In this document: in pieces, positions 3,656 to 25,845 of the stretch
Layout: each line of letters opens with the position of its first letter
How positions within the stretch are numbered: the stretch's first letter is position 1
Assembly (NCBI GenBank): GCA_963676395.1
Contig: OY781066.1
Span: 1,280,001-1,344,000, forward strand
DNA: 64,000 nucleotides
Reading direction: 5' to 3'
Source of the DNA: a bacterium
Lineage (GTDB): Bacteria; Fidelibacterota; Fidelibacteria; Fidelibacterales; Fidelibacteraceae
Notes under the pieces: model-generated
What the model was told of the DNA's origin: nothing
What the model saw: only the letters and a program-made list of their open reading frames with translations
The model's database searches: none
Made by a program: the position numbers and the translations under genes

Positions 3656-3657
3656 GC

Positions 3658-4845: not shown

Positions 4846-6110
4846 AGAAAGTATTGATCGTCACATATTATTGGCCTCCTGCAGGTGGTCCGGGAGTGCA
4901 AAGAGTGCTGAATATGGTTAAGCATTTACCGGAATATGGTTGGCAACCCATGGTATTAACTGTGGAAAAACCATCGGCACCGGCGATTGACCCTAGCTTG
5001 TTAAATTATATTCCCAAAGAATGCAAAGTTTATAAGACCAGGACATCGGAACCCTTTGAAGCTTATAAGAAATTAACCGGTAAAAAATCGGGAGAAGCTC
5101 TTCCCAAGAATATTACTTTGGATACACATTTATCTTTTAGCGAAAAATTGTCACGCTGGATTAGAGCAAATTTATTTATTCCCGATGCTCGCAAAGGATG
5201 GAAACGATTTTTGGTCAGAGAGGGTATGAAGATCATTAAAAGTGAAAAGCCTGACTTAATTCTTTCTACTTCTCCGCCACATTCCGTTCAAGTTGCTGCA
5301 ATGAAGCTTGCAAAAAAAAGTGAATTACCCTGGGTGGTGGATCTGAGGGATCCTTGGACAGAAGCGTATTGGGAAAGCGCAATGCCTAAAACTCAAAGCA
5401 GTGAAAATAAAAACAAAAGATTTGAACGTGACGTTCTGAATACAGCAGATCAGGTTACAACGGTAGGCGAGGGAGTCGCTAAATTACTTAGAGGTAAAAC
5501 CACAAAGCCGGTCTCAGTCATTTACAATGGATACCGTAAGGTTGATAATGGCATGATAAAAAGTGACTATTTTGAAATTCTTCATTTGGGGAATTTAAGT
5601 ACGATGCAAAGCATTGAAGAGTTGCTTCTGGCTATAGAAATGCTTGATAAAGAAATTCAAAAAAACATAAAGCTGCGCTTTATAGGCTCTTTGGCGTCCG
5701 AACATAAAGAACGTATTGATCATATGGAATTTGTTCTAAAGGAGTATCTTCCTTTTATGCCATATGAAAACATGATAAAAGAGGCCAAATCGGCATCCCT
5801 GTTGTTTTTACCTCGTTTGAACAGCACTTACTCTAAAAGTTTGATCTCGGCTAAGATTTTTGATTATCTTGCTCTAGGTCGACCAATTTTTGCCATAGCA
5901 GATAAAGATAGTGACGTTTCAGGTATCTTAAAGCATAGCGAAAGCGGCTTGGCATTTGAATCATATGAGATAAATAAAATGGTAAATTATTTAAAAAACT
6001 GCTACGATCACCTGAAAGATTATTCTATAAACACTACAAAGTTAAAGACTTACTCACTCGAAGAAAATATTTCTTCTTTATCAGATATATTCAATCGCTT
6101 GATAAGCTAA
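4842..6110 (+). CDS. Glycosyltransferase family 4
   Basis: KKVLIVTYYWPPAGGPGVQR, STSPPHS, DLRDPW, KIFDYLALGRPI motifs. Confidence 0.88.
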   Translation: MKKVLIVTYYWPPAGGPGVQRVLNMVKHLPEYGWQPMVLTVEKPSAPAIDPSLLNYIPKECKVYKTRTSEPFEAYKKLTGKKSGEALPKNITLDTHLSFSEKLSRWIRANLFIPDARKGWKRFLVREGMKIIKSEKPDLILSTSPPHSVQVAAMKLAKKSELPWVVDLRDPWTEAYWESAMPKTQSSENKNKRFERDVLNTADQVTTVGEGVAKLLRGKTTKPVSVIYNGYRKVDNGMIKSDYFEILHLGNLSTMQSIEELLLAIEMLDKEIQKNIKLRFIGSLASEHKERIDHMEFVLKEYLPFMPYENMIKEAKSASLLFLPRLNSTYSKSLISAKIFDYLALGRPIFAIADKDSDVSGILKHSESGLAFESYEINKMVNYLKNCYDHLKDYSINTTKLKTYSLEENISSLSDIFNRLIS

Positions 6111-6244: not shown

Positions 6245-6450
6245 TACGTTGGAATTTTAAGAAGAATTATAGGTTATAACTATATGTGGTGGAAATTAAC
6301 ACGAGTAGTTACAATATGTAGCGTTTATTTCGCGAATTCTCAATTTGAATACAGTTGGGAGATTGAGAATTATAGTTAAATATTCTATGCTTTTTTCTTG
6401 AAGACATGAATATTATCATGTATTTTCATCTTTAATTGGAGAATTGTAAT

Positions 6451-6900
6451 ATGTTAGACCAGAAAGATAAGATTATTTTAAAAATACTGCAGGAGAACGC
6501 AAGGACGTCGAATGCAGAAATTGCCAGACATATGGGCATGACGGCATCTGCAATTTATGAAAGAGTAAAAAAGCTTGAGAAAGCCGGTATCGTAAAAAAC
6601 TATGAAGCTCGCTTAGAGCCTTCGGTTCTTGGTCTAAATTTATTATCTATAGTTTTGATCTCTTTGTATGATCTTACAAAGATGCGAGATACCGGAAAAG
6701 TTCTTGCCGGTTTTGATAAAATACAAGAGATTCATTACATTGCGGGCAAAGGCTCGATTATGGCGAAAGTCAGGACTTCGGGAACCGAGGACCTTGAAAA
6801 ATTATTGGATAGCATTAATTTGATAGATAATGTAAAAAACACAGAGTCTACCATCGTATTAAAATCAGAAAAAGAAACATCTAGTTTATACGTAGAATAA
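6451..6900 (+). CDS. Lrp/AsnC family transcriptional regulator
   Basis: LDQKDKIILKILQENARTSNAEIARHMGMTASAIYERVKKLEKAG HTH plus RAM domain; ATG 6451 has GGAG SD at 6438-6441 (ORF track starts at TTG 6436). Confidence 0.93.
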   Translation: MLDQKDKIILKILQENARTSNAEIARHMGMTASAIYERVKKLEKAGIVKNYEARLEPSVLGLNLLSIVLISLYDLTKMRDTGKVLAGFDKIQEIHYIAGKGSIMAKVRTSGTEDLEKLLDSINLIDNVKNTESTIVLKSEKETSSLYVE

Positions 6901-6917
6901 AACAATTGGAGGTTGTT

Positions 6918-8996
6918 ATGAAACGTATTGTTATTGCAACATTAGTGGCGATGTTGTTGGTCAGCACAGTATTTGCTGTGCAAATGGCTACACTACCCAT
7001 TAATCACAAAGATCGCGTAGAACGCGTAGTTAAAGAAACAGGTCGTGAGATATATAATTACTCAATGTCCAAGGCAACTGCAAAATCCGTGTCAGCCTAT
7101 GATCCGGCTTTTTCGGCTGTGTTAATCGACTCCAGTAAAAATGGTTTTGGTTTAGTTTCAGGTGTTACAAATCCTATCTCTCATAAAGATGCTAAATTTG
7201 TTATGGCTTATCGTCAATGGATAGGTATTGAAAATTCATCAGGTGCAGTAGGTATGGCCTATAGTGTTGATGGTGGTACGGTATGGACAAATCAAAGTAG
7301 TTTGAATGCTGTATCTCCCGGCGAGTTGACAGCTCGTTATCCTTCTGCTATTGGTGCAGGTAATTATCCGTTTATTACTTGGAACGAATATACCGGCGCC
7401 AATTCAGGCGTTGAAAACGATGCAGATCCTCTGTTCGTTGTAGATATGCTTGGTTTTGGTGGTGGTTATCTTTCAACCCCACAGCTTGTTGGAAATTCAT
7501 CTAATCCGGAAGGTATGTGGATGGGGTGTCCCGACTATAGTGAAGAACCAAATGGTACAGGTCACATCAATATTACTTATACAACGTGGCGTGAATTTAA
7601 TCCGGACGATGTAAGCTCACATAATATGTATCTATATCGTTCAACCGGTATTTCATCCGGTACGGTTTCATTTGCTTCATCTGAAAAAATTCTTGATGCA
7701 CTTACATATTATGAAGCCGGCTCTGCTGATGGTTCAACTACATCAGATGCTTTGATCTCAATCGCAGATAATGGCATTGGTTATGTTGCCAATGTTGCTT
7801 ATTGGGGAGCAAATCATAAAGATCTTGTAGAAGACAATGATTATCATACGTTCAAATTCCGTAAAACAACTGATTACGGCTCTACATGGTCAACAACATC
7901 ATTTGATACAGATGTTCCATATTACTATATAGAAGACAAACATTTTGATGACAATATCTTTGATACCTATATTCCTTCACAACAGTTTGAAGTAGCTTAT
8001 GGTACTGATACGGTTGTTGTTGATGAGTTAAAAGGTACTGAAGATGCGGTGCTTGATACATTAAATTATCCCGGACTTTTTATTGGTTATGATAATGATA
8101 TGGTTGTAGACGCCAATGGTGGTGTTCACTTTATGTGTCTTGTTATCCCCGAGGCTGAAGAAGCCGGTAAGATCATGCCTACAGTTCATGAAGGATGTGG
8201 ATTTTATCATATCTATTGTTCAGATCCTGCTTCATCTACAGCAGAATATGAAGTATCCTTTGTAACTTCAATGCAGAATACATGGCGTTTTTCTTATGGT
8301 AAGAGCGATAAAGCATGGCAAAGTTTCTTCCCTGTAATGGCAACATCTACCGAAGATCCAAACACCATCTACGCAGTATATCCTAAAGGAGATATCTTTA
8401 AAGAAGAAGATCCTGAATCACCTGGAGATACACTTCTTTATAGGAGAAGCTATGATATTTATATGCGTCGCTCAATAGATGCCGGTGCTACTTGGCAGGA
8501 AGAGATCAATGTAACCAACACTCCCGATTATGATGAACTGTGTGCTCATGCTGATCCTGACGCAACCGATGATAATGTTTATATTATTTATCAGGTTCCG
8601 GATTATAATATTCATACTGTTGATAATGATACCACAGATGCGGTTCCTGAAGACTATATGAACCGGATTTATTTCATGAATGTTAATTATTCGTCAGAGG
8701 TGCCAAGAGAAGATGCTGTTGTTGATGTACCTGCTAGCTTTGATCTAGCACAGAACTATCCCAACCCATTCAACCCTGTGACAACAATTGCATTTGATAT
8801 TCATGAAGCAGGTGAATATTCACTGGATGTATTTAATACACTGGGTCAAAAAGTTAAAACTTTAATTTCCGATTACAGGAATGTTGGTCGTTATGAAGTT
8901 GAGTTTGATGCTTCTGATCTATCGTCCGGTATATATTTCTATTCACTAACAAGTGATAATGTTACACTTACTCATAAAGCTGTTTTATTAAAATAA
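6918..8996 (+). CDS. Secreted T9SS type A CTD protein with Asp-box (BNR) beta-propeller-like domain
   Basis: Signal peptide; Asp-boxes SVDGGTVW, TTDYGSTW, SIDAGATW; CTD LAQNYPNPFNP...LSSGIYFY...KAVLLK; GGAGG SD at 6908-6912. Confidence 0.85.
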   Translation: MKRIVIATLVAMLLVSTVFAVQMATLPINHKDRVERVVKETGREIYNYSMSKATAKSVSAYDPAFSAVLIDSSKNGFGLVSGVTNPISHKDAKFVMAYRQWIGIENSSGAVGMAYSVDGGTVWTNQSSLNAVSPGELTARYPSAIGAGNYPFITWNEYTGANSGVENDADPLFVVDMLGFGGGYLSTPQLVGNSSNPEGMWMGCPDYSEEPNGTGHINITYTTWREFNPDDVSSHNMYLYRSTGISSGTVSFASSEKILDALTYYEAGSADGSTTSDALISIADNGIGYVANVAYWGANHKDLVEDNDYHTFKFRKTTDYGSTWSTTSFDTDVPYYYIEDKHFDDNIFDTYIPSQQFEVAYGTDTVVVDELKGTEDAVLDTLNYPGLFIGYDNDMVVDANGGVHFMCLVIPEAEEAGKIMPTVHEGCGFYHIYCSDPASSTAEYEVSFVTSMQNTWRFSYGKSDKAWQSFFPVMATSTEDPNTIYAVYPKGDIFKEEDPESPGDTLLYRRSYDIYMRRSIDAGATWQEEINVTNTPDYDELCAHADPDATDDNVYIIYQVPDYNIHTVDNDTTDAVPEDYMNRIYFMNVNYSSEVPREDAVVDVPASFDLAQNYPNPFNPVTTIAFDIHEAGEYSLDVFNTLGQKVKTLISDYRNVGRYEVEFDASDLSSGIYFYSLTSDNVTLTHKAVLLK

Positions 8997-9012
8997 AAAA
9001 TAAGTCAAATAT

Positions 9013-9044
9013 ACAGGCTGCCTCCTTTTATAGGAGGCACCTGT
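9013..9044 (+). other. Intergenic stem-loop without U-tract
   Basis: ACAGG(C)TGCCTCCT-TTTAT-AGGAGGCA-CCTGT. Confidence 0.6.
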
Positions 9045-9060
9045 TACCTAAGGGGATTGT

Positions 9061-11946
9061 ATGAAGAAAGGTTATATCCTTTTTGTGGTTTGTTTGATGT
9101 TTTTTGGTGTCGCCTTTGGCGATATTGTTGGTTCTGTAAGAGGAACGGTTGTGGCGGCCGAAACCAACGAACCCTTAATGGGCGTCAATATCATGGTAGA
9201 AGGTACCTCTGTTGGTACTTTTACCGACCAAACAGGCTATTACAATATCATTAACTTACCGATCGGAGAATATAATGTCACTTATACTATGATCGGTTTT
9301 AAAAAAATTATTCAAAAAAGCGTAAAGGTCATTCGAGACCAATCAACTATTATTAATGCGCGTATGCAGGTCGAAGCCGTTCAGGGCGAGGTTGTAGAGG
9401 TCATTGCCGATCGTCCTTCTGTAGAAAAGGATGTTGTTGGTCGTAAGGTTGTGATGGAAACGGAGCAGGTGGTTAATTTACCTGTTCGCGATATGACGGA
9501 AGTTTATACGCTTCAATCCGGTATTATTGAGATCAAAACAGCCGATCTTGGTATCCCCGGGTTTGAAGAACGGGGTATCGAACAGATACACGTTCGAGGT
9601 GGTCGAGCTAACGAAACAGGTTTCATGATTGATGGTATGTATATTGAGAATCCGCTTTACGGTGGTAAAGGTAAGGGAACTCGATTAAATCAGTTTGCAG
9701 TTGCTCAGGTTGATTTTCAAACCGGCTTTTTTAATGCTGAATATGGTGATGCGATGTCCGGTATGATCAATACTGTTACTCGAACCGGTCCCTCTAAATT
9801 TTCCGGTATGTTGCGATATGAACGCTCAGATTTTGGTCCCATTTCTTCAGAACAGGATCAATTAAGAAATTTCTCAAAAATTGCCGGTGGATTTGGCGGA
9901 CCTCTTATCACCGATAAAATCAGATGGTGGACTTCTTTTGATCAAACTAATTCGGCATATGCGGTTTATAAGTTTGATGATCTTGCTTTTGATAAAGAAA
10001 ATCCACTAAGCGATTATAATGTCAATAATCATATAAATCCTTTGGATACAATTGCCGGTTGGCGTTCCTTTGGTTTTGATAACACCTTTGATATTTTTTC
10101 AAAGTTGACTTTTTTGATCTCTCCAAAGATTAGAATGAATTTGTCGCATTGGTATGTTAATTCAAATTATAAAGCCTTTGATCCCTCATATATCTATTAT
10201 GATTTGGGTAAAAATGAAGTTGAAAAAATTTCTAAACGCTATGCTATAGAATGGCGTCATCAGTTGAACGATAAAACATATTATACTGTAAACTATTCTG
10301 ATTTTACTCAAGAAATGACCATGGGTGTTAGAAACTATGATTCTGATGGCGATGGTTATCCCGATTGGGTAGAACAGCGTAATCTTGCAGATTTTTATGA
10401 TAGTACAAAAGTGCCGTACATGGATGATGGAAACGGAAGCAATATTCCTTTGGAATATGTTTTAGATGGAGCTGATACACTTTGGCGCCTGGGTGATGAA
10501 ATGAATGAATGGCTTACTGCCGAACAGTATAATCAACCTTGGGTTCTTGCTCCTTTTGTCGATGAGGATATGATTATTGAGTATCAGAACAGTCCGAATT
10601 TAAAAGCTTATTGGGCAGAATACTATTATAGTGGTGCCGATAGGTATTATCATTATACTAAGGCACGTACAAAAGAGTTGAGGTTTGATTTGACTTCACA
10701 AGTCAGTCGACATAGTCAGATAAAAACAGGAATAGATTATAAAACACATCAGATTACATTTGATGAGGTTCAGTTGCCATGGCTATCAACACCTTATACT
10801 GAAAACTATTATCGAGTACCTCAAGAGTTTGCCGGATATGTTCAGGATAAGATTGAATATCCCTGGATGGTCATCAATGCCGGTTTGCGCTTTGATGCAG
10901 CCAACGCAAATGACTCCATGTGGGTAGATCCACGCGATCCTCTTTCCGGTATGGAACCTACAAAATGGGAATTTCTCTGGAGTCCTCGCTTAGGTTTTTC
11001 ACATGTGATCACAGATAAATCAACCTTTACATTTGGTTATGGTATTTATTATCAGAACCCTACTTATCGTGATATTTACAACAATATTGATGAACGTGAA
11101 AATCTTGATCAGTTTTTTACATCTCCAAGTCCATTGATGGGTAACCCGAATGTTAGTGCTCAAAAAGTAACATCGTATGAATTTGGTATCAATACCGAAG
11201 TCGCTAGAGACTATGTTCTGGGTGCAGTTGGTTGGTCTAAAGATTATTCTAACATGAATTCAACAGAAAAGGTTCGTTCCGGATCTGTTTCATATACAAC
11301 TTTCGTGAACTATGATTACGGTTCAGCTCGCGGTGTGGATATTATTTTCGAAAGGAGACGCGGTCGTTTCCTTACCGGTAATATTCAGTACACCTATTCG
11401 CGTGCAATGGGTAATCGTTCCGACCCCTGGGAAGGATATCGAAATGGTGAAGACCCCATTACAATGCCTAAAAGAGAAGTATTACAGGATTATGATAGAA
11501 CTCACGATTTTTCAGCTCAGCTGACATTTAGATTGCCTGAGGGCTATGGTATTCCCGTTGGTAGATATCATTTATTTCAGAATACGATGACGAATTTGAC
11601 ATTTGTTGCAATTTCGGGTGCGCCTTATACACCTATCTTATCAAATGATAAAGCGGGACCTACAAACTCAGAACGTATGCCAACTTATTTTACAACGAAT
11701 TTGGCATTCAGAAAGTATATTAAGATGTTTGGATCGACTCGTTTAGTTTTGGGCTTGGTTTGTACCAATCTTTTTAATCGCATGAATGAATTGTATGTAT
11801 ATCCTCGTACCGGAACTGCAGACAATCCTGGCGGTATTGATGAAGGCTATATTCTCGATGGAATCGTAAGTTCAAGTTACTATGATCGTCCATGGTATTA
11901 TGATGATCAAAGATCCCTTGACTTCTTCCTTGAAGTCGAGTTTTAA
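9061..11946 (+). CDS. TonB-dependent receptor with N-terminal carboxypeptidase-regulatory-like domain
   Basis: Signal peptide; GSVRGTVV..EPLMGVNI..GTFTDQTGYYNI domain; plug motifs IHVRGGR and FNAEYGDAMSG; NAGLRFD; terminal Phe (LEVEF). Confidence 0.92.
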   Translation: MKKGYILFVVCLMFFGVAFGDIVGSVRGTVVAAETNEPLMGVNIMVEGTSVGTFTDQTGYYNIINLPIGEYNVTYTMIGFKKIIQKSVKVIRDQSTIINARMQVEAVQGEVVEVIADRPSVEKDVVGRKVVMETEQVVNLPVRDMTEVYTLQSGIIEIKTADLGIPGFEERGIEQIHVRGGRANETGFMIDGMYIENPLYGGKGKGTRLNQFAVAQVDFQTGFFNAEYGDAMSGMINTVTRTGPSKFSGMLRYERSDFGPISSEQDQLRNFSKIAGGFGGPLITDKIRWWTSFDQTNSAYAVYKFDDLAFDKENPLSDYNVNNHINPLDTIAGWRSFGFDNTFDIFSKLTFLISPKIRMNLSHWYVNSNYKAFDPSYIYYDLGKNEVEKISKRYAIEWRHQLNDKTYYTVNYSDFTQEMTMGVRNYDSDGDGYPDWVEQRNLADFYDSTKVPYMDDGNGSNIPLEYVLDGADTLWRLGDEMNEWLTAEQYNQPWVLAPFVDEDMIIEYQNSPNLKAYWAEYYYSGADRYYHYTKARTKELRFDLTSQVSRHSQIKTGIDYKTHQITFDEVQLPWLSTPYTENYYRVPQEFAGYVQDKIEYPWMVINAGLRFDAANANDSMWVDPRDPLSGMEPTKWEFLWSPRLGFSHVITDKSTFTFGYGIYYQNPTYRDIYNNIDERENLDQFFTSPSPLMGNPNVSAQKVTSYEFGINTEVARDYVLGAVGWSKDYSNMNSTEKVRSGSVSYTTFVNYDYGSARGVDIIFERRRGRFLTGNIQYTYSRAMGNRSDPWEGYRNGEDPITMPKREVLQDYDRTHDFSAQLTFRLPEGYGIPVGRYHLFQNTMTNLTFVAISGAPYTPILSNDKAGPTNSERMPTYFTTNLAFRKYIKMFGSTRLVLGLVCTNLFNRMNELYVYPRTGTADNPGGIDEGYILDGIVSSSYYDRPWYYDDQRSLDFFLEVEF

Positions 11947-11957
11947 GGAGTATGTAC

Positions 11958-14900
11958 ATGAAATTTATAAAAAAAATTGTATGTTTAATTTTGCCGGTGC
12001 TTGTATTTGCAATTCCTATGGAAGTCAAGTATGGTGCGTCGTTTGCAAAAAGCAGCACACCGAATCCGATCTATGAGCGTGCTAAATCATATGCTGATCA
12101 AGGTAAATTCAAAACATGTGTTTTGAATTATGGTAACTTTGTGGATCATTGGCAAGAAGATGTTGCCGGTGCATGGGGTGATTACCAATACCTTGCAAAT
12201 GTTTCTTTTATGATTGGTGTGCCCGGACAAGATAAAGAAGGAAATATTTATCCTTGGGCTTATCGTCCACACCCTGATCCTGAAAGAACAGATAGCATCT
12301 ATTGGGGTGCAACGGTTTCAGAATCTTGGTTGGATCGTACTGCGAACCAGGTTAATACAGACTGGGACGTTGTCGTTGGTTCCAAAGGAAAAACTTATTC
12401 CGGTGATATAACAGCCGGAGATTATGTTGGAGGTGTTTGGACACCTGAAAGCGATACATGGCCACTTTTGGCGACATCTATTGCTCCTGAATCCTGGCCT
12501 AAACGTGATGATGGCGAAGGAAATGAGGAAAGCTTTTGGCCCGGTTGGTATGCAATTGATACAGACCCCTCATCACCTACATATGGCAAAGAGGTTGAAG
12601 GTCGTTTTACATCTGATGTGGATATTTATCTTGAGATAGATGATGCCTATGCAGATCGCGAACCCGTATCATCTTTCAATGGTTATCCTACGGGCACCAA
12701 AGTGTTAGCTACCGTCCACTCTTATGGTCGCGCTTACGCCGAAGATATTATGTTCGTTACAATGAAAGTGGTCAACGCTTCTAATGAATATGGTTTGAAT
12801 AATGGAGAAGGATTCAACTATAAGGGAACCTATTGCGGCTTTTATTTTGATGCAGATATGTTCTCGGCATTTTATCATGGTGGTGCACGCCCATGTAATA
12901 CCAACGACGGTGATATGATGGGTTATAATGCAACCTATGATTATGCATTTATTTATGATCTTGATCAGGAAGAATGTGGCGGAGCTTATGATGTTGATGC
13001 TTTTGTAGCGGTTAAATTACTGGATACACCCAATGCATCTGATACGGTATGGACTAGTGAAACAGACTATATAGCTCCGGGTGAAGAATTGGGCTTGACC
13101 GATTGGCATTGGTTTGATTGGTATAACCGCCCAGGCGTTATTAACAAAGAAGGTTCGGGTGGTCCTTTTATTGGGAACGGAACTCAACCTGAATCACCTA
13201 AAAAAGAAGAATTGATGTATCAGTTAATGGCCGGTGATACGACCGGATTAACCGAAAAAGAAGATGAATGGTATTTTCATCCTGATAATCGTGGTGATAC
13301 TAATCCTCATTATGACAGTATGGAGGGACTTTTGTCAGCATTCCCAGATGGTTTGGATTGTGTTTGTATGATGTCGGCTGGCCCCTTTGACTTTAATGTT
13401 GGTGATACGGCAATGTTTTCATTTGCTGTTATTATGGGAGAAAATATTCCTGATCTAAACCGTAATGCAAATATGGCTCAGATCATGTATGATTTGCGTT
13501 ATCAGGGTTTTTCGGCTCCCATTGCTCCCACGGTTTCCGCTGTAAGCGAATGGAATTCTGAAACAGAAGAAATGGCGGTGCGTTTGGTTTGGGATGATGC
13601 GGCAGAATCTTCAACCGATATTGTTACTCAGTATCCTGATTTTGAAGGTTACCGTGTTTACAAATCTACCGATGGTGGTCAAACATGGGGAGATCCAATC
13701 TATGATACATATCAGACTCATGTAGGTTATAAACCTATCGCACAATTTGATTTAACCGCTGTTGAAGACATGGCTCGCTATGGTCGTGAAGTATCCGGTC
13801 AAGATCCAATGGCTCCCTGGTTTGATCTGGGAAGTAATACCGGTTTGCAACATGAATATGTTGACCATGATGTTCAGGTAGGTAAAGAGTATACTTATTC
13901 AGTTACAGCTTATGATATCGGTATTGAACCCGGTTTTACTATTGATGTTAGCTATGAAGATGTAGTAGATCCTAGCTCTGGCTTAACCTATCAGGTGATT
14001 AAGTATGATACCACTTGGTCTAAAACTAATGTTGATGAACAATGGGCTGCTTATTCCTTGGAATCTTTAGAGAATACTAAAGGAACAACGCCCCGGTCAC
14101 CTCAGTTTGTAAGAATTACTCCCTCAAGGTATCCTATTGATATCAAGGCGGAGATCGATCTGGTTCCCAGTGATAGCACGGTCGGTAATACACCAACATT
14201 AATTCGCATTGCTGAACCGAACAAAGTAATAGATCATGAGTATAAAATCACTATCGAAGCTAAGGATGCTACGGCAATTAACTTTAAGACGGGTCCATAT
14301 ATTAAAAACCCGACTTATACTGTTATAGATGTTACGGCAGGTGATACGATTGTTGAAAATCTTTCAAATAATGATATTAACCCTGATGATCCGAATACAT
14401 TTCGACCGATTTTTGATGGTCTACAAGTTGTGTTTGACAATATAGAAAGAGCAAGTGTAGATTCTGTGAAATGGGCTTCAAACCAACAGTATATTGAAAC
14501 ATCTCCTTGGTCAACCTTGCCTTTCCCACCGGCATCTGATTATGCAATTATTTTTGGTTCGGCAGATGAGGTGCTTGATACGGTACTATGGAATACACCC
14601 TTCGCAGAAAGACCTGCGCCTTTTAAAGCGATTAAACTGCCAAGTGGCGAAAGAGTTCAGATATTAGTACTTGAAGATGGTAATTCAAGAGATGATACAT
14701 TGAACTACCTTGATGATATTTCTTTCTATGAGGCAAATGTACCTGGAAGACCTGTTGGACTTTCGATTCCTACATGGGCTTTTGAGTTTTCTTGGGATAC
14801 CACGTTGGTGAAACACACAGGTTATCCGTTTACACCGGGAGACACATTGTATTTTAGAACGTTCAAACCATTTGAAGATGGTGATGAATTTACCTTTACT

Positions 14901-15236
14901 GCAGCCGATTTCTCCGAAGAAGTTGAGTTGACAGATGAGGATCTGAAACGCATTAAGGTTGTTCCAAACCCATATATGGTTTCTGCTCAGTGGGAACAGA
15001 GTGAATATGAGAAAAGAATGCTATTCACAAATCTTCCGACTAAGTGTGAAATTAGTATCTTCACCTTGACTGGGGAGTTTGTTAATAAGGTTGTTCATGA
15101 TAATGAATATGATGATTCTGAGGCGTGGGATTTAACAACCATTAACCGCCAGGAAGTAGCTCCGGGACTTTATGTTTTTACGGTTGAGCTTTCAGATGGC
15201 AGAACCCATATTGGCAAATTTGCCATTATACGATAA
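11958..15236 (+). CDS. Large secreted protein with FN3-like domain and atypical T9SS-type C-terminal domain
   Basis: Signal peptide; FN3-like segment (VRLVWDD..FEGYRVYKS..EYTYSVTAYD); CTD IKVVPNPY..FTNLP..IFTLTGEFV..WDL..APGLY..GKFAIIR; ATG 11958 better spaced from GGAG than ATG 11952. Confidence 0.75.
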   Translation: MKFIKKIVCLILPVLVFAIPMEVKYGASFAKSSTPNPIYERAKSYADQGKFKTCVLNYGNFVDHWQEDVAGAWGDYQYLANVSFMIGVPGQDKEGNIYPWAYRPHPDPERTDSIYWGATVSESWLDRTANQVNTDWDVVVGSKGKTYSGDITAGDYVGGVWTPESDTWPLLATSIAPESWPKRDDGEGNEESFWPGWYAIDTDPSSPTYGKEVEGRFTSDVDIYLEIDDAYADREPVSSFNGYPTGTKVLATVHSYGRAYAEDIMFVTMKVVNASNEYGLNNGEGFNYKGTYCGFYFDADMFSAFYHGGARPCNTNDGDMMGYNATYDYAFIYDLDQEECGGAYDVDAFVAVKLLDTPNASDTVWTSETDYIAPGEELGLTDWHWFDWYNRPGVINKEGSGGPFIGNGTQPESPKKEELMYQLMAGDTTGLTEKEDEWYFHPDNRGDTNPHYDSMEGLLSAFPDGLDCVCMMSAGPFDFNVGDTAMFSFAVIMGENIPDLNRNANMAQIMYDLRYQGFSAPIAPTVSAVSEWNSETEEMAVRLVWDDAAESSTDIVTQYPDFEGYRVYKSTDGGQTWGDPIYDTYQTHVGYKPIAQFDLTAVEDMARYGREVSGQDPMAPWFDLGSNTGLQHEYVDHDVQVGKEYTYSVTAYDIGIEPGFTIDVSYEDVVDPSSGLTYQVIKYDTTWSKTNVDEQWAAYSLESLENTKGTTPRSPQFVRITPSRYPIDIKAEIDLVPSDSTVGNTPTLIRIAEPNKVIDHEYKITIEAKDATAINFKTGPYIKNPTYTVIDVTAGDTIVENLSNNDINPDDPNTFRPIFDGLQVVFDNIERASVDSVKWASNQQYIETSPWSTLPFPPASDYAIIFGSADEVLDTVLWNTPFAERPAPFKAIKLPSGERVQILVLEDGNSRDDTLNYLDDISFYEANVPGRPVGLSIPTWAFEFSWDTTLVKHTGYPFTPGDTLYFRTFKPFEDGDEFTFTAADFSEEVELTDEDLKRIKVVPNPYMVSAQWEQSEYEKRMLFTNLPTKCEISIFTLTGEFVNKVVHDNEYDDSEAWDLTTINRQEVAPGLYVFTVELSDGRTHIGKFAIIR

Positions 15237-15248
15237 AGGAGAGCGAAG

Positions 15249-16298
15249 ATGAATATTATTAAACGATCAATCATCTTATTGGCCGTTCTGAGTCTAAGCT
15301 TCCTTTTTGCTCAGACAGATCCTATAGATATTCCTACCGATGTTTCTAAGGTAGGTACACACGCTGCTCAATTTTTAAAATTGGAAGTTGGTGCAAAAGC
15401 TGCTTCATTGGGTGGTGCGTATGTCGCGGGTGTAAGTGATCTTACTGCATTGCATTGGAATCCAGCCGGTTTATCAAAGGTTGGCCAACAGTCGGTATAT
15501 GGAACTTATATGAATTTATATGCAGGTATTCAGCATGGTTTTGTGGCCTATGGTACGCAGCTCGGCCGCTCTGATTACTTTGGAGTAAGTGCTACATACT
15601 TAAATTCCGGTCAAATGGAAGTAACAAATATAAATTTTCCCGAAGGCTCGGGACAGTTCTTTTCTGTTAGCGATATTGCCATTGGTTTGAGTTATGCAAG
15701 AAATCTAACCGATCGCTTGAGTGTTGGCGCAACCGTTAAATTTGTGAATGAAACGATTTGGCGTGAAAGCGCTTCAGCATTTGCTTTTGATATTGGTTCA
15801 CAGTTTGATACAGGTATTCTTGGAATTAAGCTTGGAATGGCCGTAACGAATTTCAGTACAAAATTTCAATTTCACGGTCCCGACTTGTTAGTTCCCGTAG
15901 ATACTGATGATCAATATGCTGGTAATCCCGAAACTGATGCGTATTTGGCAACAGAAGAATGGGCTTTGCCTTTAGTGTTCAGGCTTGGTATTATGGTTGA
16001 CATGGTGGGGCCAAATTCAGAGATCTTAAAAAATCGTGATCACCGGGTAACATTTTCATTCGATGGAAATGATCCATTGGACCATTATTTGAGATTCAAT
16101 ACGGGAATGGAATATTGCTTCCAGGAAATGTTCGCATTGCGTATGGGATACCACCTAAACTATGATAAGGCTTCCTTTTCAGCCGGTGTAGGCTTGAAAA
16201 TGAATGTTAATAGTATGCCTTTGAATATTGACTATGCTGTAGTAAATTATGGTACTTTAGGACTGGTTAATCAGGTAAGTATTCAAGTAGGAATATAA
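15249..16298 (+). CDS. PorV/PorQ family outer-membrane beta-barrel
   Basis: AQFLKLEVGAKAASLGGAYVA..DLTALHWNPAGL signature; alternating beta-strand pattern; signal peptide. Confidence 0.88.
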   Translation: MNIIKRSIILLAVLSLSFLFAQTDPIDIPTDVSKVGTHAAQFLKLEVGAKAASLGGAYVAGVSDLTALHWNPAGLSKVGQQSVYGTYMNLYAGIQHGFVAYGTQLGRSDYFGVSATYLNSGQMEVTNINFPEGSGQFFSVSDIAIGLSYARNLTDRLSVGATVKFVNETIWRESASAFAFDIGSQFDTGILGIKLGMAVTNFSTKFQFHGPDLLVPVDTDDQYAGNPETDAYLATEEWALPLVFRLGIMVDMVGPNSEILKNRDHRVTFSFDGNDPLDHYLRFNTGMEYCFQEMFALRMGYHLNYDKASFSAGVGLKMNVNSMPLNIDYAVVNYGTLGLVNQVSIQVGI

Positions 16299-16331
16299 AT
16301 AAAGAAAAAAACTTGAGAAAGGAGAACTCAC

Positions 16332-19205
16332 ATGAAACGTGTAGTTGCTTTGTTATTGATTGCTTCTGTTGTATTGTTTGCAGCAGTAGCTCCTCAAAGT
16401 TCTCTCAAGAACGCCAACGAATTACAACGGGTAAAAACAACAACAAATGCTGTTGCTAAAACTACTCCCGTAATTAATTCGGATGTAAAAACTCGTGATA
16501 TCAATTTAAGTAATGCTCCGGCATTAGCAGTTGATCCATCAGTTGTTACAATTGTGTATCTTGAAGACTTTGAAAACGGTGCTAATGGTTGGACTCAGTT
16601 CGACGGCACAGCTCCCGATCCTCTTGCTGAATGGCATTTGGATGATTTCCAAACCGGAGACTCGCTATGGTGGTGTGGAGCTTACTCGGTGGGTGGTTAT
16701 TTGAGTAATTGGAATGTTGCTCTTGAAACTCCTGAAATTGTTTTGACTGCTGGAGATTCAACGCTATCTTTTCAATTGAATCTTCACGTTGAAAGTCCGG
16801 GCGGTGAGCCTGAGGGTTATGATGCCTGGGATGGAGCTAACGTTCAAATCACAAACGATGGTGGTGCCACTTGGACAGTTTTAAATCCAACAGGCGTTCC
16901 TTATAATGCTTCAAGCTTGTATTCATTCGGATATATTTTCGAGATGGGTCCGGGACAACCCGGTTGGGCCGGTGCCGTTTCCGGTGAAGCAGAAGTTGAT
17001 CTAGGTGCATATATTGGCGATACTGTAAAACTTCGTTTTGTATTTTGTTCTGATGGTGGTTTTGACGCAAGTGATGATGGCAGCATGTTTGGCATGGAAA
17101 TTGATTCGATTGATGTTGCCGGTGACGCAACCTATAATGGTTCGGTAACCGATGGTTTAACATCAGTATGGGCCGGTCCTGTCGCTTCGGGTGCATACTG
17201 GGCAATTGAAGATAGAGTTGATTCTATTCCTTCGCCTACACATGTTCTTCGTAACTGGGTAAATGGCGATACAACATATGCTCGTAATCTTGAAGATTAC
17301 TACGTGTCACCTACAATCACTCTTCCCGATGAACCTGCAACATTGATCTATTGTGATTTTGATTTTTGGGCAGATTTTCAGGATGAAGTTGGTGAGTTTC
17401 CCGCCACAGAATATTGGCGTTTAGAATATTCTACGGATGATGGTGAAACTTGGTTCGGTATTTCTGAAATAGAGGGTGAAAACTTTGTTTATAGTGAAAG
17501 AATTCCCCAATGGTATGCTTTTACCACCGCATATGATGCATCATGTAATCTAACTGATTTTGCAGGTCAAGATATAAAATTTCGTTTTTACTTCCGTTCA
17601 GATGAAGATAAACCCGGTGGTCAGGGCCTGATGATAGATGATTTTGTTGTTTATACAAAGCCAGATCTTCCTATTCCGCAGAATGTTACCGCTACCCTTA
17701 ATGCCGGTGATGTAGATGTTGCATGGCAAGATATGAATGCTACTTATCAGCTTCCTAAATCATGGATGGGGCTAGAAGCCGTTGATTATGCTTATTATAT
17801 GCCCGGTGCTTCAGGTGCTTTTTCATCTTTACCGGATACCACTGGTAGTTCTTGGGCAATGTCATATTCCACCGATGGAAAAGATATTACATTTACAAGC
17901 TTAGATTATGTTTTTGCTAATAATAATCCTAGTAATGATAGTGTTCAAATCGTTCTATGGGGAATTGATACAGCCGGATATCATCCATTATATATTTCTG
18001 ATGTTTTTGTTCCCGATGCTGTAACATCTCAGCAATCCATTGACATATCTTCAGAAGGTGTGGTTTGGAATGGCGATTTTGAAGTTGAAGTGTTTTGGGT
18101 TTCAAATTCTACATATCCTTTGACATTTGCTGGAGATGGGGAAGGTACAATTTATGTCCCGGGTGCCGGTTATTATAGTGTTAGCTATTCAGTGCCATTT
18201 GGAGCTTCCGGATACGGTGAAGTTACATATAGTGGTCTAGAATACAATCTGTTCCGTCGCGTTGCTTCACAATCTGTTCCTGTTGAAATTGCAACTGGAT
18301 TGACTTCAAATTCATATACAGATGAAGACGCTGATAATTTTGTTGAATATGAATATACAGTAGCCTGTGCAACACCTTCTTTTACCGGTAACGTTAGCAG
18401 TGGTGCTTCAGTATTTGTATATCCTCCTGACGTAGAAGAGGCAAAACACGATGATGGTACTTTTGAAGCTGTTTGGGCACTTGGCATGGACACAACAGTT
18501 GTTGTGAAAATTACTCCTACAGCATATCCCGCAACACTTGAAGCTGTTCGTTTTAATGCTTTGTGGGCCGGCGATGCCTATAAAATAAAGATCTTTAAAG
18601 ATGATAACGGAATGCCCGGTGATTCATGGTTGATGATCGAACCTCCTGTTACAGCTATTGCAGGTTGGAATGCATTTAGTGTTCTCAATCCTTTGACTGT
18701 TGATAACGGAAACGGTGTTGTACTTCGTGATGGTGAATCCTGCTGGATTGGTGTTAAAGGTGCAACAGCTGCTGAGCGCGCTTGGCTTGCTGCAGATACA
18801 AGTTCATTTTCCGGAATGGCTGCAATGCAGGTACCTGGTGGCGGTTGGGCTTCAGTAGCACCATTTATGATGGCTAACCCCATGATCCGTGGTTATTTTG
18901 ATACAAGTATCGATACAACTTCAATCGAAGATTTTGTACCGACAGAATACGTTCTGAATCAGAACTATCCTAACCCCTTCAACCCCGTTACTACAATTCA
19001 TTTTGAATTGAAAGAAAGTGGCATGACAAAAGTAGACATCTTTGATGTTGCGGGTCGTCACGTACGCACTCTTTTGAACGGTACTGTTGATGCTGGTGCA
19101 TATGATCTGAATTTTGATGCTTCTGCATTATCAAGTGGTGTTTATTTCTATCGCTTGACTTCAGGTTCTTTCACCGATATTAAGAAAATGTCATTGCTTA
19201 AATAA
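16332..19205 (+). CDS. Secreted T9SS type A CTD protein with two jelly-roll/adhesin-like domains and FN3
   Basis: Signal peptide; YLEDFENG..W; duplicated units (ITNDGGATW..VKLRFVF and STDDGETW..IKFRFYF); CTD LNQNYPNPFNP...LSSGVYFYRL...KKMSLLK. Confidence 0.85.
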   Translation: MKRVVALLLIASVVLFAAVAPQSSLKNANELQRVKTTTNAVAKTTPVINSDVKTRDINLSNAPALAVDPSVVTIVYLEDFENGANGWTQFDGTAPDPLAEWHLDDFQTGDSLWWCGAYSVGGYLSNWNVALETPEIVLTAGDSTLSFQLNLHVESPGGEPEGYDAWDGANVQITNDGGATWTVLNPTGVPYNASSLYSFGYIFEMGPGQPGWAGAVSGEAEVDLGAYIGDTVKLRFVFCSDGGFDASDDGSMFGMEIDSIDVAGDATYNGSVTDGLTSVWAGPVASGAYWAIEDRVDSIPSPTHVLRNWVNGDTTYARNLEDYYVSPTITLPDEPATLIYCDFDFWADFQDEVGEFPATEYWRLEYSTDDGETWFGISEIEGENFVYSERIPQWYAFTTAYDASCNLTDFAGQDIKFRFYFRSDEDKPGGQGLMIDDFVVYTKPDLPIPQNVTATLNAGDVDVAWQDMNATYQLPKSWMGLEAVDYAYYMPGASGAFSSLPDTTGSSWAMSYSTDGKDITFTSLDYVFANNNPSNDSVQIVLWGIDTAGYHPLYISDVFVPDAVTSQQSIDISSEGVVWNGDFEVEVFWVSNSTYPLTFAGDGEGTIYVPGAGYYSVSYSVPFGASGYGEVTYSGLEYNLFRRVASQSVPVEIATGLTSNSYTDEDADNFVEYEYTVACATPSFTGNVSSGASVFVYPPDVEEAKHDDGTFEAVWALGMDTTVVVKITPTAYPATLEAVRFNALWAGDAYKIKIFKDDNGMPGDSWLMIEPPVTAIAGWNAFSVLNPLTVDNGNGVVLRDGESCWIGVKGATAAERAWLAADTSSFSGMAAMQVPGGGWASVAPFMMANPMIRGYFDTSIDTTSIEDFVPTEYVLNQNYPNPFNPVTTIHFELKESGMTKVDIFDVAGRHVRTLLNGTVDAGAYDLNFDASALSSGVYFYRLTSGSFTDIKKMSLLK

Positions 19206-19225
19206 GCGAATAGGACATAGATATG

Positions 19226-19259
19226 AAAAGCCCGGATGTATTTCCGGGCTTTTTGTTTT
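19226..19259 (+). terminator. Rho-independent terminator closing the lrp-TBDR operon
   Basis: AAAAGCCCGGA-TGTATT-TCCGGGCTTTT followed by further T residues. Confidence 0.9.
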
Positions 19260-19400: not shown

Positions 19401-22400
19401 ATGAAAAAAACCTTGAAAATCATAATGTTAGTGACTTTGTCGCTGAGTGTAGCCTTTGCTGTTGAGGCTTACTATGCAAATCAATATCTCTTCAATTTGA
19501 ATGCTGATGAGATGCCTTTAACAAAAGAGCAAATGCAAACGTTAAAGACACCTTATCCGCATTTAAATAAATTAATAAAGAAATATGATGTGGTTCGTAT
19601 AGAGCCATGGTTAAAACATGCTAAAGCAGATGAATCGTTTGATGGGGTATATTTAAACAGGGTTTATCGTTTGGTTACTTCTGCAATACAACCCGCTCCT
19701 CTTTTAATCGCAGATGAAATTGCTTCATCATCAAAAAAAATTATGAATGCCGAACCTGAAGCGATCATGCGAACATCTTCTGCTATACCTAATGACCCGG
19801 GTATGGGTAAGCAGTGGTTCTTGCATAAAGCAAACGTACCGGATGCTTGGAAACTATGGAACTTGGAAGCGGGAGAAGTGCCAGGTGATAGAAGTATAGT
19901 TGTGGCTGTTGTTGACGATGGTGTGGAATATACTCACCCGGATTTATGGAAAAACATATGGATTAATCAGGATGAGATATCTGCAACATATTTTGGACTA
20001 ATTGACACAGATGCAAATGGATTTGTTACGCCAGAAGAAGCTGTTGCTTTTACCGGTGATCTGAATGGAAATGGGAAAGCTGATCTTAGAGATGTGTTGT
20101 CCTCCATGTCACCTCTAACTGATGGTGTAGATAATGATAGCGATGGTTATATTGATAATATCATTGGTTGGGACACTAACGAATCAGGACGTTCCTCTGA
20201 TGATGATAAAGATCCAATGGTAACGAATAATTCTCATGGAACACATGTTGCAGGTCTTGTTGGAGCAACAAGCAATAATGGCGTTGGGGTTGCATCTGCT
20301 GCTTATAATATTTCTATTATGGCCGTAAAGGCGACCGGAGACGAAACGGTTTTAAGTATTAATACGGGATATGATGGTATGTTGTATGCAGCTCAGGCCG
20401 GAGCCGATATTATTAATTGTTCTTGGGGTGGTCCGGGCTATAACTCCTATGCCCAAACTCTTATATATACCATCACAAACACCTATGGTTCTTTAATGAT
20501 CGCTGCAGCCGGTAACGGTGACGATTACGGGAATCCGGATGATACACCGCACTATCCTTCTGGCTACGATAATGTTATATCTGTAACGGCAGTATCTTCT
20601 TCAGATGTTTTTTCATGGGCGAATTATGGAGCGGCTGATGGGAATTTTAAAGGCATTGATATTTCAGCGCCCGGCGAAAGCTTGTATAGCACCTATTTAA
20701 CAAAAGATAATCCATATGCTTATTTGACCGGAACTTCTATGGCGTCACCCTTCGTGGCTTCATGTTTTGCTTTACTTAAGTCGGTTTATCCCGATAGTTC
20801 AAATGAATGGTTGACTGAACGTATGCTAAACAATACTGATCCTATAGATCATTTAAATCCTGATTTCGCCGGTGAACTGGGGAGAGGCCGAGTTAATATG
20901 CTAAAAGCTTTGGTATTTGATAAATGGCCAAACTTGAGCGTAGCGAAACTTAATCAAAGTATTGGATCTGGAGATGGTGATTCTATTTTGAATCCGGGTG
21001 AAACCGTTGATGTAAACCTAGAGTTGATGAATGATAGTGGTTGGACTCAAGCATCTCAGGTTTCAGGAGTATTATCAACTGATGAAGAAGGTGTTTTGCT
21101 TTTAGATTCTATTGCTTCTTGGTCATCAATTTCTTCCGGTAGCAGTTTGCTTAATGAAGGGAATGGTTTTAAAATTCAGTTTGATTCTGATGCAGAGATA
21201 AAAACCTATAGTTTTAATCTTGATTTGCTTTCGAATGAAGCCGGTAGTTTTCCATATCGCAAAACTTTAAAGATTAATATTGACCTTTCACTTGTTCAAG
21301 AAGGTTTTCCATTTTATGCAAAGACTGAGGTAGAGGCAGGTGTTGTTTGCGCTGATGTTAATGATAATGGAAATCAAGAGATCATTTTTGCAGATAAGAG
21401 TGGTTACTTATATATAATTGACGCCATGGGCGATACACTTCCTAATTTTCCTATTGCTCTGGGCTCACAACCCGGTGGTATAGCAGTCGCTGATATTGAT
21501 CTGGATGATACGCTTGAGATCGTGACTACTTTGTTTGATAAAAAGGTTCAGGTATATGATGTAAGCGGAAAAAAAGAATGGTCACGTAAAGCAGGGCTTT
21601 TTATTACCGGATTGCCCGCTATTGGTAATTTGGATGCCGATCCCGAACTCGAAGTTGTTTTTACTGCCTATGATCAAAAAATATACGCTGTAAATCATGA
21701 CAGTACTGATGTTCCGGGTTTCCCATATTTAACAGGACAATTGCTTCATAGCGGTCCCTCTTTAGCAGATATAAATGGCGATGGGAAAGATAATATTATC
21801 GTTGCTTCAAAAGGTGGGCAATGTCTTGTATTGAATAGTGATACAACCCCTATGACTTCATGGCCGGTAAATGGATTAGGCTCAATTATCGCGGAGCCAC
21901 AGGTAATACTGGGTAATGATACTTCTGCAGTAATACTTGTTGGTAACGAAGGTGGAGATATATATGCATTAAATATCGATGGTAGCCAAAGGTTTAGTGT
22001 TAATGGTTCCGGTTCAATTAGAACATCTCCTGCATTATATTTTGATGGAGGAGAAGCTTTTGCATTTTTTGCTACAACGACAGGCAATATTTATAAAATA
22101 GATTTAAATACCGGAGACCTGGTAGAATCATGGCCAAAAACGATTGCATCACAATTGTATCATTCTTTAACTATTTGTGATATACCCGTAGAAGGAAGCA
22201 TGACCCCTTGTATTCTTGCTATGGGTAACAATGGAAAACTTTATACCATGGATTTGAATGGAAATTCTGTAGGGAATAATTTTCCCTTGGATACGAAGTA
22301 TTTATCAAAATCTTCACCGGTCCTAAGTGATATAGATGCTGATGGTGATTTAGATATTATTACCGGAAACTATTCGGGTGTTACTGTTCAGGATTTAAAA

Positions 22401-22769
22401 ACCATTATGGGTACCAATTATTGGCCGATGCATAAGGGTAGTGCAGATAGACGAGGATCTGTAAGTCAAATGTTAACGTCAGTCGATGATGGGTCAATCT
22501 TGGCAAACACGTTTGAATTAATGGGTAATTATCCCAACCCTTTTAATCCAACTACCATGATCAGATTTACTATTCCTTCAATATCGACAATGACATTGAA
22601 AGTATATTCCTTAGATGGTAAGGAAGTATATTCAAAGGCATATCAAAACATGAGCGCCGGAGTCAATGAAATTGATCTTAATATGAATAGCTTTGCTTCA
22701 GGTCTATACATCTATTCCTTGCGTTTCGGTGATCTTGTTAAAAACTCTAAAATGATCTTAATGAAATAA
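19401..22769 (+). CDS. S8 (subtilisin-like) serine peptidase with FG-GAP repeats and T9SS type A CTD
   Basis: Catalytic triad VAVVDDG, HGTHVAG, GTSMASP; oxyanion AAAGNG; repeats ADVNDNGNQEI, ADIDLDDTLEI, ADINGDGKDNI; CTD GNYPNPFNP...SKMILMK. Confidence 0.93.
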   Translation: MKKTLKIIMLVTLSLSVAFAVEAYYANQYLFNLNADEMPLTKEQMQTLKTPYPHLNKLIKKYDVVRIEPWLKHAKADESFDGVYLNRVYRLVTSAIQPAPLLIADEIASSSKKIMNAEPEAIMRTSSAIPNDPGMGKQWFLHKANVPDAWKLWNLEAGEVPGDRSIVVAVVDDGVEYTHPDLWKNIWINQDEISATYFGLIDTDANGFVTPEEAVAFTGDLNGNGKADLRDVLSSMSPLTDGVDNDSDGYIDNIIGWDTNESGRSSDDDKDPMVTNNSHGTHVAGLVGATSNNGVGVASAAYNISIMAVKATGDETVLSINTGYDGMLYAAQAGADIINCSWGGPGYNSYAQTLIYTITNTYGSLMIAAAGNGDDYGNPDDTPHYPSGYDNVISVTAVSSSDVFSWANYGAADGNFKGIDISAPGESLYSTYLTKDNPYAYLTGTSMASPFVASCFALLKSVYPDSSNEWLTERMLNNTDPIDHLNPDFAGELGRGRVNMLKALVFDKWPNLSVAKLNQSIGSGDGDSILNPGETVDVNLELMNDSGWTQASQVSGVLSTDEEGVLLLDSIASWSSISSGSSLLNEGNGFKIQFDSDAEIKTYSFNLDLLSNEAGSFPYRKTLKINIDLSLVQEGFPFYAKTEVEAGVVCADVNDNGNQEIIFADKSGYLYIIDAMGDTLPNFPIALGSQPGGIAVADIDLDDTLEIVTTLFDKKVQVYDVSGKKEWSRKAGLFITGLPAIGNLDADPELEVVFTAYDQKIYAVNHDSTDVPGFPYLTGQLLHSGPSLADINGDGKDNIIVASKGGQCLVLNSDTTPMTSWPVNGLGSIIAEPQVILGNDTSAVILVGNEGGDIYALNIDGSQRFSVNGSGSIRTSPALYFDGGEAFAFFATTTGNIYKIDLNTGDLVESWPKTIASQLYHSLTICDIPVEGSMTPCILAMGNNGKLYTMDLNGNSVGNNFPLDTKYLSKSSPVLSDIDADGDLDIITGNYSGVTVQDLKTIMGTNYWPMHKGSADRRGSVSQMLTSVDDGSILANTFELMGNYPNPFNPTTMIRFTIPSISTMTLKVYSLDGKEVYSKAYQNMSAGVNEIDLNMNSFASGLYIYSLRFGDLVKNSKMILMK

Positions 22770-22934: not shown

Positions 22935-23009
22935 GGGCGCTTAGCTCAGTTGGTTCAGAGCACCTGCCTTACAAGCAGGGGGTCACAGGTTCGAGTCCTG
23001 TAGCGCCCA
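22935..23009 (+). tRNA. tRNA-Val(TAC)
   Basis: Cloverleaf: acceptor GGGCGCT/AGCGCCC, D-stem GCTC/GAGC, anticodon arm CCTGC-CTTACAA-GCAGG, T arm ACAGG-TTCGAGT-CCTGT; CCA not encoded. Confidence 0.97.
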
Positions 23010-23016
23010 CACCCAT

Positions 23017-25749: not shown

Positions 25750-25823
25750 GCCACCTTAGCTCAGTCGGTAGTAGCGACGCTTTCGTAAAGCGTAGGTCGG
25801 CGGTTCGAATCCGCCAGGTGGCT
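25750..25823 (+). tRNA. tRNA-Thr(CGT)
   Basis: Acceptor GCCACCT/AGGTGGC, anticodon arm ACGCT-TTCGTAA-AGCGT, T arm GGCGG-TTCGAAT-CCGCC; discriminator T; CCA not encoded. Confidence 0.93.
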
Positions 25824-25845
25824 CTAGAAATTGTAAGGACTAGTT

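Follow-up and report, generated by a model that had tools for sequence, protein, structure and literature searches.

Gene content of the locus

The stretch of DNA analyzed here (the window; 64,000 nucleotides (nt), positions 1,280,001 to 1,344,000 of contig OY781066.1, assembly GCA_963676395.1) belongs to a member of the Fidelibacteraceae (phylum Fidelibacterota) whose genome is a single contig of 2.34 Mb, 95% complete. Six same-strand open reading frames (ORFs) encode, in this order, an Lrp/AsnC regulator, a beta-propeller type IX secretion system (T9SS) cargo, a TonB-dependent receptor, a large secreted protein that we call the partner, a beta-barrel and an adhesin-like T9SS cargo; the gaps between them measure 17, 64, 11 (5 if the partner starts at its first ATG), 12 and 33 nt. 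A hairpin resembling an intrinsic terminator (19223..19256; 14 pairs, six of them G-C, and a T tail) follows, so that the preliminary description of this DNA, which had announced six close-packed co-directional genes and a terminator, was accurate on this point; an S8 subtilase gene lies beyond. We deal here with the triad of receptor, partner and barrel and with the six-gene cassette, from propeller to protease, to which it belongs; all six products of the cassette are of exported types, and all features of the locus lie on the + strand.

The receptor (9061..11946, 961 amino acids (aa)) ends in phenylalanine and matches PF13715 (CarboxypepD_reg) and PF07715 (Plug, 24.4 bits for a cut-off of 23.9). 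It stands outside the SusC/RagA family, reaching 32 bits with TIGR04056 where the cut-off is 368. The SusD families PF07980 and PF14322 gave no match in this 95%-complete genome and did give matches in a control genome; no lipobox was found in any of the six secreted proteins of the cassette, and a Pfam search of the seven proteins of the locus returned no glycoside hydrolase (GH) family. The earlier statement that SusD-like lipoproteins and recognizable glycoside hydrolases are missing from the locus is therefore borne out. Among 61 related genomes, SusD occurs in 6 versus 60 for the partner family.

The partner (11952..15236; 1094 aa, or 1092 from the ATG at 11958) matched no Pfam family, and its closest homologues bearing a name come from Marinimicrobia records. 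Its signal peptide is followed by a beta-supersandwich (residues 36-519), an Fn3-like domain (~520-730) that holds the motifs most conserved in the family, beta domains up to residue 990 and a PorZ-type tail (991-1094); the AlphaFold2 (AF2) model, from 73 alignment rows, is mainly beta (pLDDT 88, pTM 0.77). The supersandwich is galactose-mutarotase-like, the best structure being 9ju0 (Z 18.4, root-mean-square deviation (rmsd) 3.4 over 262 residues), with 1lf6 at Z 17.1. The highest-scoring structures come from GH15/94/65-type enzymes, whose N-terminal domain, non-catalytic in them, is the part matched; 3nre (Z 12.0) and 9k1g (Z 11.7) were also matched, and the fold is catalytic in mutarotases. 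The beta domains up to residue 990 matched no fold, residues 590-990 having barely been searched and no carbohydrate-binding module having come up in that limited search, and Foldseek with the whole partner returned only Ig/Fn3 noise, PorZ excepted. What had been noticed as an unusual C-terminal domain (CTD) proves by structural superposition to be a PorZ-like tail (5m11 residues 683-776; Z 12.6, rmsd 2.0, 93 residues aligned, 22% identity), to which the PorZ profile NF052228 responds weakly (residues 993-1094, E 0.014; 14 of 260 bits, tail only). The barrel (15249..16298, 349 aa) belongs to the PorV/PorQ family (NF033709, PorV_fam, 199 bits for a cut-off of 90) and scores 115 bits with the PorQ model (cut-off 220) and 83 with the PorV model, both under the equivalog cut-offs; with such scores, partner and barrel are not orthologous to PorZ and PorQ. 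The barrel with the best PorV-model score in the genome (L006:6829-8226; 208 bits, cut-off 250) shares 28% identity over 216 aa with that of the locus. As had been proposed, the partner thus has a PorV paralogue of its own, distinct from the housekeeping PorV.

The propeller cargo (6918..8996, 692 aa; TIGR04183 40 bits), the adhesin-like cargo (16332..19205, 957 aa; InhA-like MAM and Fn3-like, PF20773 26 bits, PF18962 43 bits) and the S8 subtilase (19401..22769, 1122 aa; PF00082 168 bits), which also carries an FG-GAP propeller, all end in a type-A CTD according to Pfam and NCBIfam. The first had been described as an Asp-box cargo: the beta-propeller fold and the type-A CTD stand, and the Asp-box matches are weak (E 0.003, below cut-off). 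The propeller spans residues ~62-593 (AF2 pLDDT 77), and R99, R140, Y98, Y141 and W201 are invariant in 29 rows. Its best structures are 5mum (Z 27.2, rmsd 3.4 over 364 residues) and 7esk (Z 25.1); the nearest structures act on sugars, and many unrelated propellers reach Z 20-24. Sequence searches of the PDB with propeller and adhesin found nothing at E < 0.1, and the Atlas gave unnamed clusters. The catalytic triad of the protease (D172/H279/S446) is intact and in order; by pattern, its homologues keep the Ser motif in 26 of 26 cases and the His motif in 24. As the sole PF00082 match, it is the only subtilase of the genome.

Conservation of the triad and of the six-gene cassette

The partner family counts 1507 representatives at 50% clustering (E < 1e-10). 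The branch that includes our partner was defined as the 82 partners with a profile score of at least 450 bits and comprises a 60-row clade at 99% Shimodaira-Hasegawa (SH)-like support; all trees were made with FastTree, the duplicates L057, L058, L089, L181 and L186 were dropped before counting, and the frame-broken L047 and L050 were left out of the trees. Where the loci left room, a receptor lies upstream of 65 of the 79 branch partners and a barrel downstream of 50 of 63; at distant loci both are present in 20 of 20. With 69 rows, the partner tree contains all 22 strong splits of the barrel tree, and the receptor tree 21 of them; of 40 receptor splits, the partner tree recovers 36 (40 of 45 strong ones, with 2 conflicts, in another set of trees). 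The three trees are thus congruent, and they show, together with the neighborhood survey of branch and distant loci, that the triad is conserved, as the preliminary description required. Triads of this kind are not confined to the locus: the genome holds six receptors of the same type, five triad barrels and, adjoining them, seven strong tails of the partner type; GH13 enzymes lie at two of its other triad loci and a GDPD protein at one. In the part of the source available to us, many TonB receptors are reported from Marinisomatota genomes and their partners are not described (PMC8630151). Marine members also carry, immediately upstream of the receptor, unannotated genes of 500-770 aa (L074:4238-6469, L051:2656-4410, L003:9506-11023), in which no family rises above cut-off and some N-termini look lipoprotein-like by eye.

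The conserved unit is larger than the triad. Among assessable receptor-linked loci of the branch, the adhesin is present in 34 of 39, the S8 protease in 30 of 36 and the propeller in 41 of 52, and the order propeller-receptor-partner-barrel-adhesin-S8 was found at nine loci of the genus, six of other Fidelibacterota (L052, L053, L055, L056, L060, L163) and nine of Calditrichota (L085, L096, L177, L179, L182-L185, L192), the Calditrichota loci often having two copies each of propeller and protease; a rotated order, with the propeller last, is seen at L070, L072 and L077. Since this order recurs in two phyla, the arrangement is beyond chance. The branch was detected in 20 of 71 Calditrichota genomes, and outside the genus the propeller is present in all nine branch-carrying genomes versus 2 of 30 others. 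A single-protein search with the propeller of the window missed known Calditrichota homologues, so that absences from such searches are weak. The preliminary description had taken the triad as the unit and left the S8 gene outside; the conserved unit consists of six genes and includes the protease, separately terminated though it is. This six-gene cassette, shared by Fidelibacterota and Calditrichota, is new here: a literature search, the coverage of which left out most subscription journals, found no description of it or of the triad.

The Lrp/AsnC gene (6451..6900, 149 aa; PF01037 47 bits, cut-off 25, the only match of the genome) has a different history. It adjoins the propeller gene wherever tblastn matched it in the genus (12 of 12 loci) and in two further genus genomes (14 in total); no match was obtained in loci L051-L056 and L059-L135, and cassette loci of other genera yielded none. 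In the sister genus, an orthologue 63-64% identical heads a different triad. Lrp as a general feature of the cassette was considered and rejected, because in other families the upstream position is taken by a Gate-domain pair or by Clp genes. The regulator is thus outside the ancient unit, and of the control by Lrp/AsnC asserted earlier, what we find is adjacency at the level of the genus. Its ATG start is preceded by a genus-conserved GGAG site, and positions 6390-6450 (a run of T, CTTG, TATCATGTA and GGAG, in this order) are conserved in the genus and likely contain a promoter or operator. The Lrp/AsnC family senses amino acids, and a role for this protein as regulator of uptake triads in this bacterial family would fit the gene neighborhoods.

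A promoter scan of the locus stayed at chance level (57 matches versus 66 expected). The 64 nt that precede the receptor gene contain a GC-rich hairpin lacking a U tract (approximately 9016..9045; -23 kcal/mol for the gap). Of 12 genus loci folded, 10 have a hairpin of differing sequence at the same place and two have frame-broken genes; the hairpin is possibly an RNA-stability element. Upstream of Lrp, window positions 35-6110 hold a surface-polysaccharide cluster (Asn-synthase-like, PGA_cap, flippase and two GT4 genes), the place of which is taken by another triad in most members of the genus. Genes for tRNA-Val (22935-23010, just 3' of the S8 gene) and tRNA-Thr (25750-25824) follow.

Partners also occur alone. 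Those devoid of a receptor come mostly from one derived subclade of marine Fidelibacterota, where L078, L081, L084, L086, L090, L093, L094 and L100 have neither receptor nor barrel and keep the His motif discussed below; such genes often lie 3' of a gene for a pyridoxal-phosphate-dependent enzyme and 5' of a glyoxalase and Rieske/cyclase cluster. In two Calditrichota genes of ~620 aa (L188:8318-10183 and L189:2565-4412) the supersandwich is fused directly to a type-A tail, and these are possibly a soluble form of the binding domain.

Anchoring, uptake and the nature of the substrate

The genome encodes both SprA and TonB, SprA/Sov lying in the window itself (52099-58488; TIGR04189 706 bits), and searches for GldL and GldM gave no match, control genomes being equally blank. 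A PorU-like gene is found at 38727-44587 (210 bits, cut-off 420), next to a divergent PorV-family barrel. [quoted passage not shown] With a tail and a neighboring barrel of these families, the partner is very probably a surface protein anchored by its barrel. Six loci, in six different genomes (L070, L075, L076, L083, L159, L162), bear a second gene that encodes an Fn3 domain and a tail and lacks the supersandwich; after each comes a barrel copy of its own, with a DNA identity of 99.3-100% to the first barrel, the tails being 54-68% identical. Because each second tail-bearing gene has its own near-identical barrel, the pattern fits one barrel per tail, a single barrel not being specific for one exact tail; concerted evolution, dosage control or an assembly effect may account for the near identity of the copies.

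Our preferred reading of the whole is that of a protein-utilization locus, RagAB-like in its uptake of peptides, whose partner is exported by the T9SS and held in the manner of PorZ on PorQ. Taken as one statement, which joins anchoring, uptake and peptide substrate, parts that are not independent, this reading is one on which we remain evenly divided; cooperation of the partner with its cognate receptor in uptake is, taken by itself, probable. We infer the following route. The S8 protease, the propeller and the adhesin would leave the cell through SprA with the housekeeping PorV and would bind or cut protein at the surface. The partner would also exit through SprA, be collected by its own barrel and be retained by an uncleaved tail, as PorZ is on PorQ. 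Its supersandwich, with a His/Trp motif specific to the branch, would then capture peptides and hand them to the cognate receptor, thereby doing the job of RagB or SusD with no lipid anchor, and TonB would drive import. In its own genus, Lrp may couple expression to the supply of amino acids. A complex prediction was attempted with the receptor barrel (618 aa) and supersandwich (356 aa) of L131, the smallest member of the family, the proteins of which are ~30% identical to those of the window, from 43-row alignments omitting the plug and the Fn3/Ig domains; it scored 0.00 in two runs with the controls not folded, which by the rule of the tool speaks neither for nor against a complex.

The partner might instead be anchored by its barrel and form no lid, acting as a surface enzyme or binding protein that prepares the substrate, for instance a metal-dependent hydrolase or epimerase working through H386 and H443. 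The mutarotase-type matches 3nre and 9k1g speak for such an activity, as do the existence of stand-alone copies and the distribution of the two histidines: H386 is found in all branch (46 of 46) and sister (21 of 21) partners and in no distant one (0 of 26), and H443 at frequencies of 0.93, 0.95 and 0, groups that are kin, so that the contrast carries no p-value. Yet the closest folds are those non-catalytic N-terminal domains of GH15/94/65-type enzymes, the alignment shows no His or Glu of the supersandwich conserved in the whole family, and the strict co-divergence with the receptor exceeds what a loose enzyme would need. We consider this explanation unlikely.

If the partner serves a receptor, the question arises as to what is imported. 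Peptides are the likely substrate, a view we hold a little less firmly than that of cooperation in uptake. The preliminary description had suggested peptides released by the neighboring protease; this gains real support because the S8 gene travels with the cassette. M4, M6, M10 or M48 peptidases are present in addition at other branch loci. No glycoside hydrolase was found, at the thresholds used, among the 112 scanned of the 182 branch neighbors (49 more are homologues of scanned proteins and 21 were left unscanned). In 26 mostly sister-clade loci, a set that includes one branch and one distant locus, peptidase families occur at 13 and glycoside hydrolases at 2 (173 neighbors, all scanned); they are C25, S8, M14, M16, M20, M28 and gamma-glutamyl transpeptidase, which we take to be a peptidase. 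Nineteen distant control loci (79 of 109 neighbors scanned; L146 dropped wholly, L138, L148, L150, L151 and L152 in part) yielded glycoside hydrolases at 7, sugar-type binding proteins at 6 and a peptidase at 1. Five sister triads (L118, L119, L121, L123, L132) have gamma-glutamyl transpeptidases, three of these loci having two each, with AstE/AspA-type hydrolases and DctM-like transporters, and are candidate loci for the utilization of poly-gamma-glutamate or glutathione-type compounds. Caldithrix abyssi is reported to ferment peptides and to grow on proteinaceous substrates (PMC5317091), and L096, a metagenome record bearing this name, carries the cassette.

The same architecture could import a glycan or glycopeptide that the protease merely frees from glycoproteins. 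The fold of the partner is associated with carbohydrates, the closest structures to the propeller, with its two invariant arginines, are a glycoside hydrolase and rhamnose/uronic lyases (5mum, 7esk), and other triads of the genome adjoin the GH13 enzymes mentioned above. Against this, the many unrelated propellers at Z 20-24 blunt the structural argument, and the scanned neighbors of the branch include neither a glycoside hydrolase nor a sugar-type binding protein, the latter being present at 6 of the 19 control loci. A glycan substrate is on balance improbable.

In a further alternative, slightly less probable still, the locus would be a module for surface assembly or adhesion, in which the S8 protease matures the adhesin, the propeller and the partner, and the receptor is a scaffold or a sensor. 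The set is indeed fixed in two phyla (one or two propellers, one adhesin, one or two proteases), while glycan triads vary in their enzymes, and the scanned branch neighbors yielded no peptide transporter of the inner membrane. However, hydrolases and sugar transporters lie beside distant triads, and the sister clades have peptidases and transporters of various kinds; because of these neighbors, the partner family is better regarded as an uptake module. Import of muropeptides, on which anaerobic Fidelibacterota depend, appears the least probable of these explanations and quite remote. The sole cultured strain of the phylum is reported to be muropeptide-dependent (PMC11652737), and murA was found neither in the genome nor in any of the 32 family members; nevertheless, murA is present in 4 of 9 carriers of the cassette outside the genus and in 3 of 5 Calditrichota carriers, and 16 murA-less genomes outside the genus are without the cassette. 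One other receptor of the genome may import cell-wall fragments. By eye, the window also holds mreBCD, a PBP2-like gene and rodA.

Several observations weigh against a peptide-uptake locus of the RagAB kind. The best fold matches of partner and propeller are carbohydrate enzymes or lectins; 14 of the 79 branch partners are receptor-less and retain the His motif, so the domain can stand alone, and the receptor-less L188 and L189 end in a type-A tail. The terminator hairpin splits the S8 gene from the five-gene stretch upstream. KSB1 members keep the triad and lack the S8 gene at 4 of 4 loci with at least 6 kb downstream, where one has an M10 peptidase and the others continue with Yip1/efflux genes; two of the six KSB1 sister loci carry M23 peptidases, and two an MGH1-like hydrolase on the opposite strand. 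The same cultured strain reportedly leaves peptone unused (PMC11652737). Barrel and supersandwich covary in size (raw rho 0.68), the phylogenetic contrasts being weak (35 of 61 of the same sign). Finally, the loci are kin and not independent, and the 19 distant controls were hand-picked from one phylum.

Comparison with known systems

SusC/SusD pairs are the means by which substrate use by Bacteroidota is read from genomes and proteomes, and PULDB, the database of polysaccharide utilization loci, starts from them. Because Fidelibacterota and Calditrichota are mostly without SusD, their uptake loci are invisible to such an approach, and the marker that is missing would come from a defined triad whose branches are substrate-specific. 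The six-gene branch suggests concretely how Marinimicrobia and Calditrichota may turn over protein, a hypothesis testable in the genus Caldithrix, which includes a cultured peptide fermenter. If it is true, extracellular protein is probably cut, and the pieces imported, without the lipoprotein lid used by gut Bacteroides, and anchoring on T9SS barrels would reach from secretion parts to nutrient capture. A broader proposal, toward which we lean with somewhat more doubt than belief, is that the Fibrobacterota-Chlorobiota-Bacteroidota (FCB) group outside Bacteroidota has a second solution to lidded import, made of a T9SS-exported partner, a private PorQ-like barrel and a TonB receptor, here within an ancient six-gene protein-feeding unit of Fidelibacterota (SAR406) and Calditrichota, and that the His/Trp motif predicts peptide versus glycan.

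Proteases in operons with an importer and without carbohydrate-active enzymes (CAZymes) are reported among the loci of PULDB (PMC5753385), and in this our locus is alike; unlike them, it would not be called, the predictions starting from susCD pairs or CAZyme clusters. PG1035-PorP and SprB-SprF, which have type-B CTDs, are likewise reported as secreted proteins anchored by their own barrel (PMC9143113), whereas here the barrel is of the PorV/PorQ family, the tail PorZ-like, and a TonB receptor is added. Closer are PorZ-PorQ and PorU-PorV, by virtue of the PorZ-like tail and of a barrel scoring higher with PorQ than with PorV. There, an uncleaved CTD on a dedicated barrel is reported (PMC10947112), while here tail and barrel are read from sequence and model; moreover, the body of the partner is not that of PorZ, and the pair occurs once per receptor locus (five such barrels) rather than as a core part of secretion. 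RagA/RagB of Porphyromonas gingivalis, reported to import protease-generated peptides with RagB as the lid (10.1101/755678), resembles our locus in that the gene for a TonB receptor comes directly before that for a dedicated surface partner and that the cell secretes proteases. The differences lie in a receptor that fails the SusC/RagA model, a partner of ~1090 aa with a beta-supersandwich, a T9SS tail and no lipobox, a third gene for the barrel and a protease encoded by the locus itself. The locus thus resembles RagAB with regard to uptake and PorZ-PorQ with regard to anchoring, and is a member of neither.

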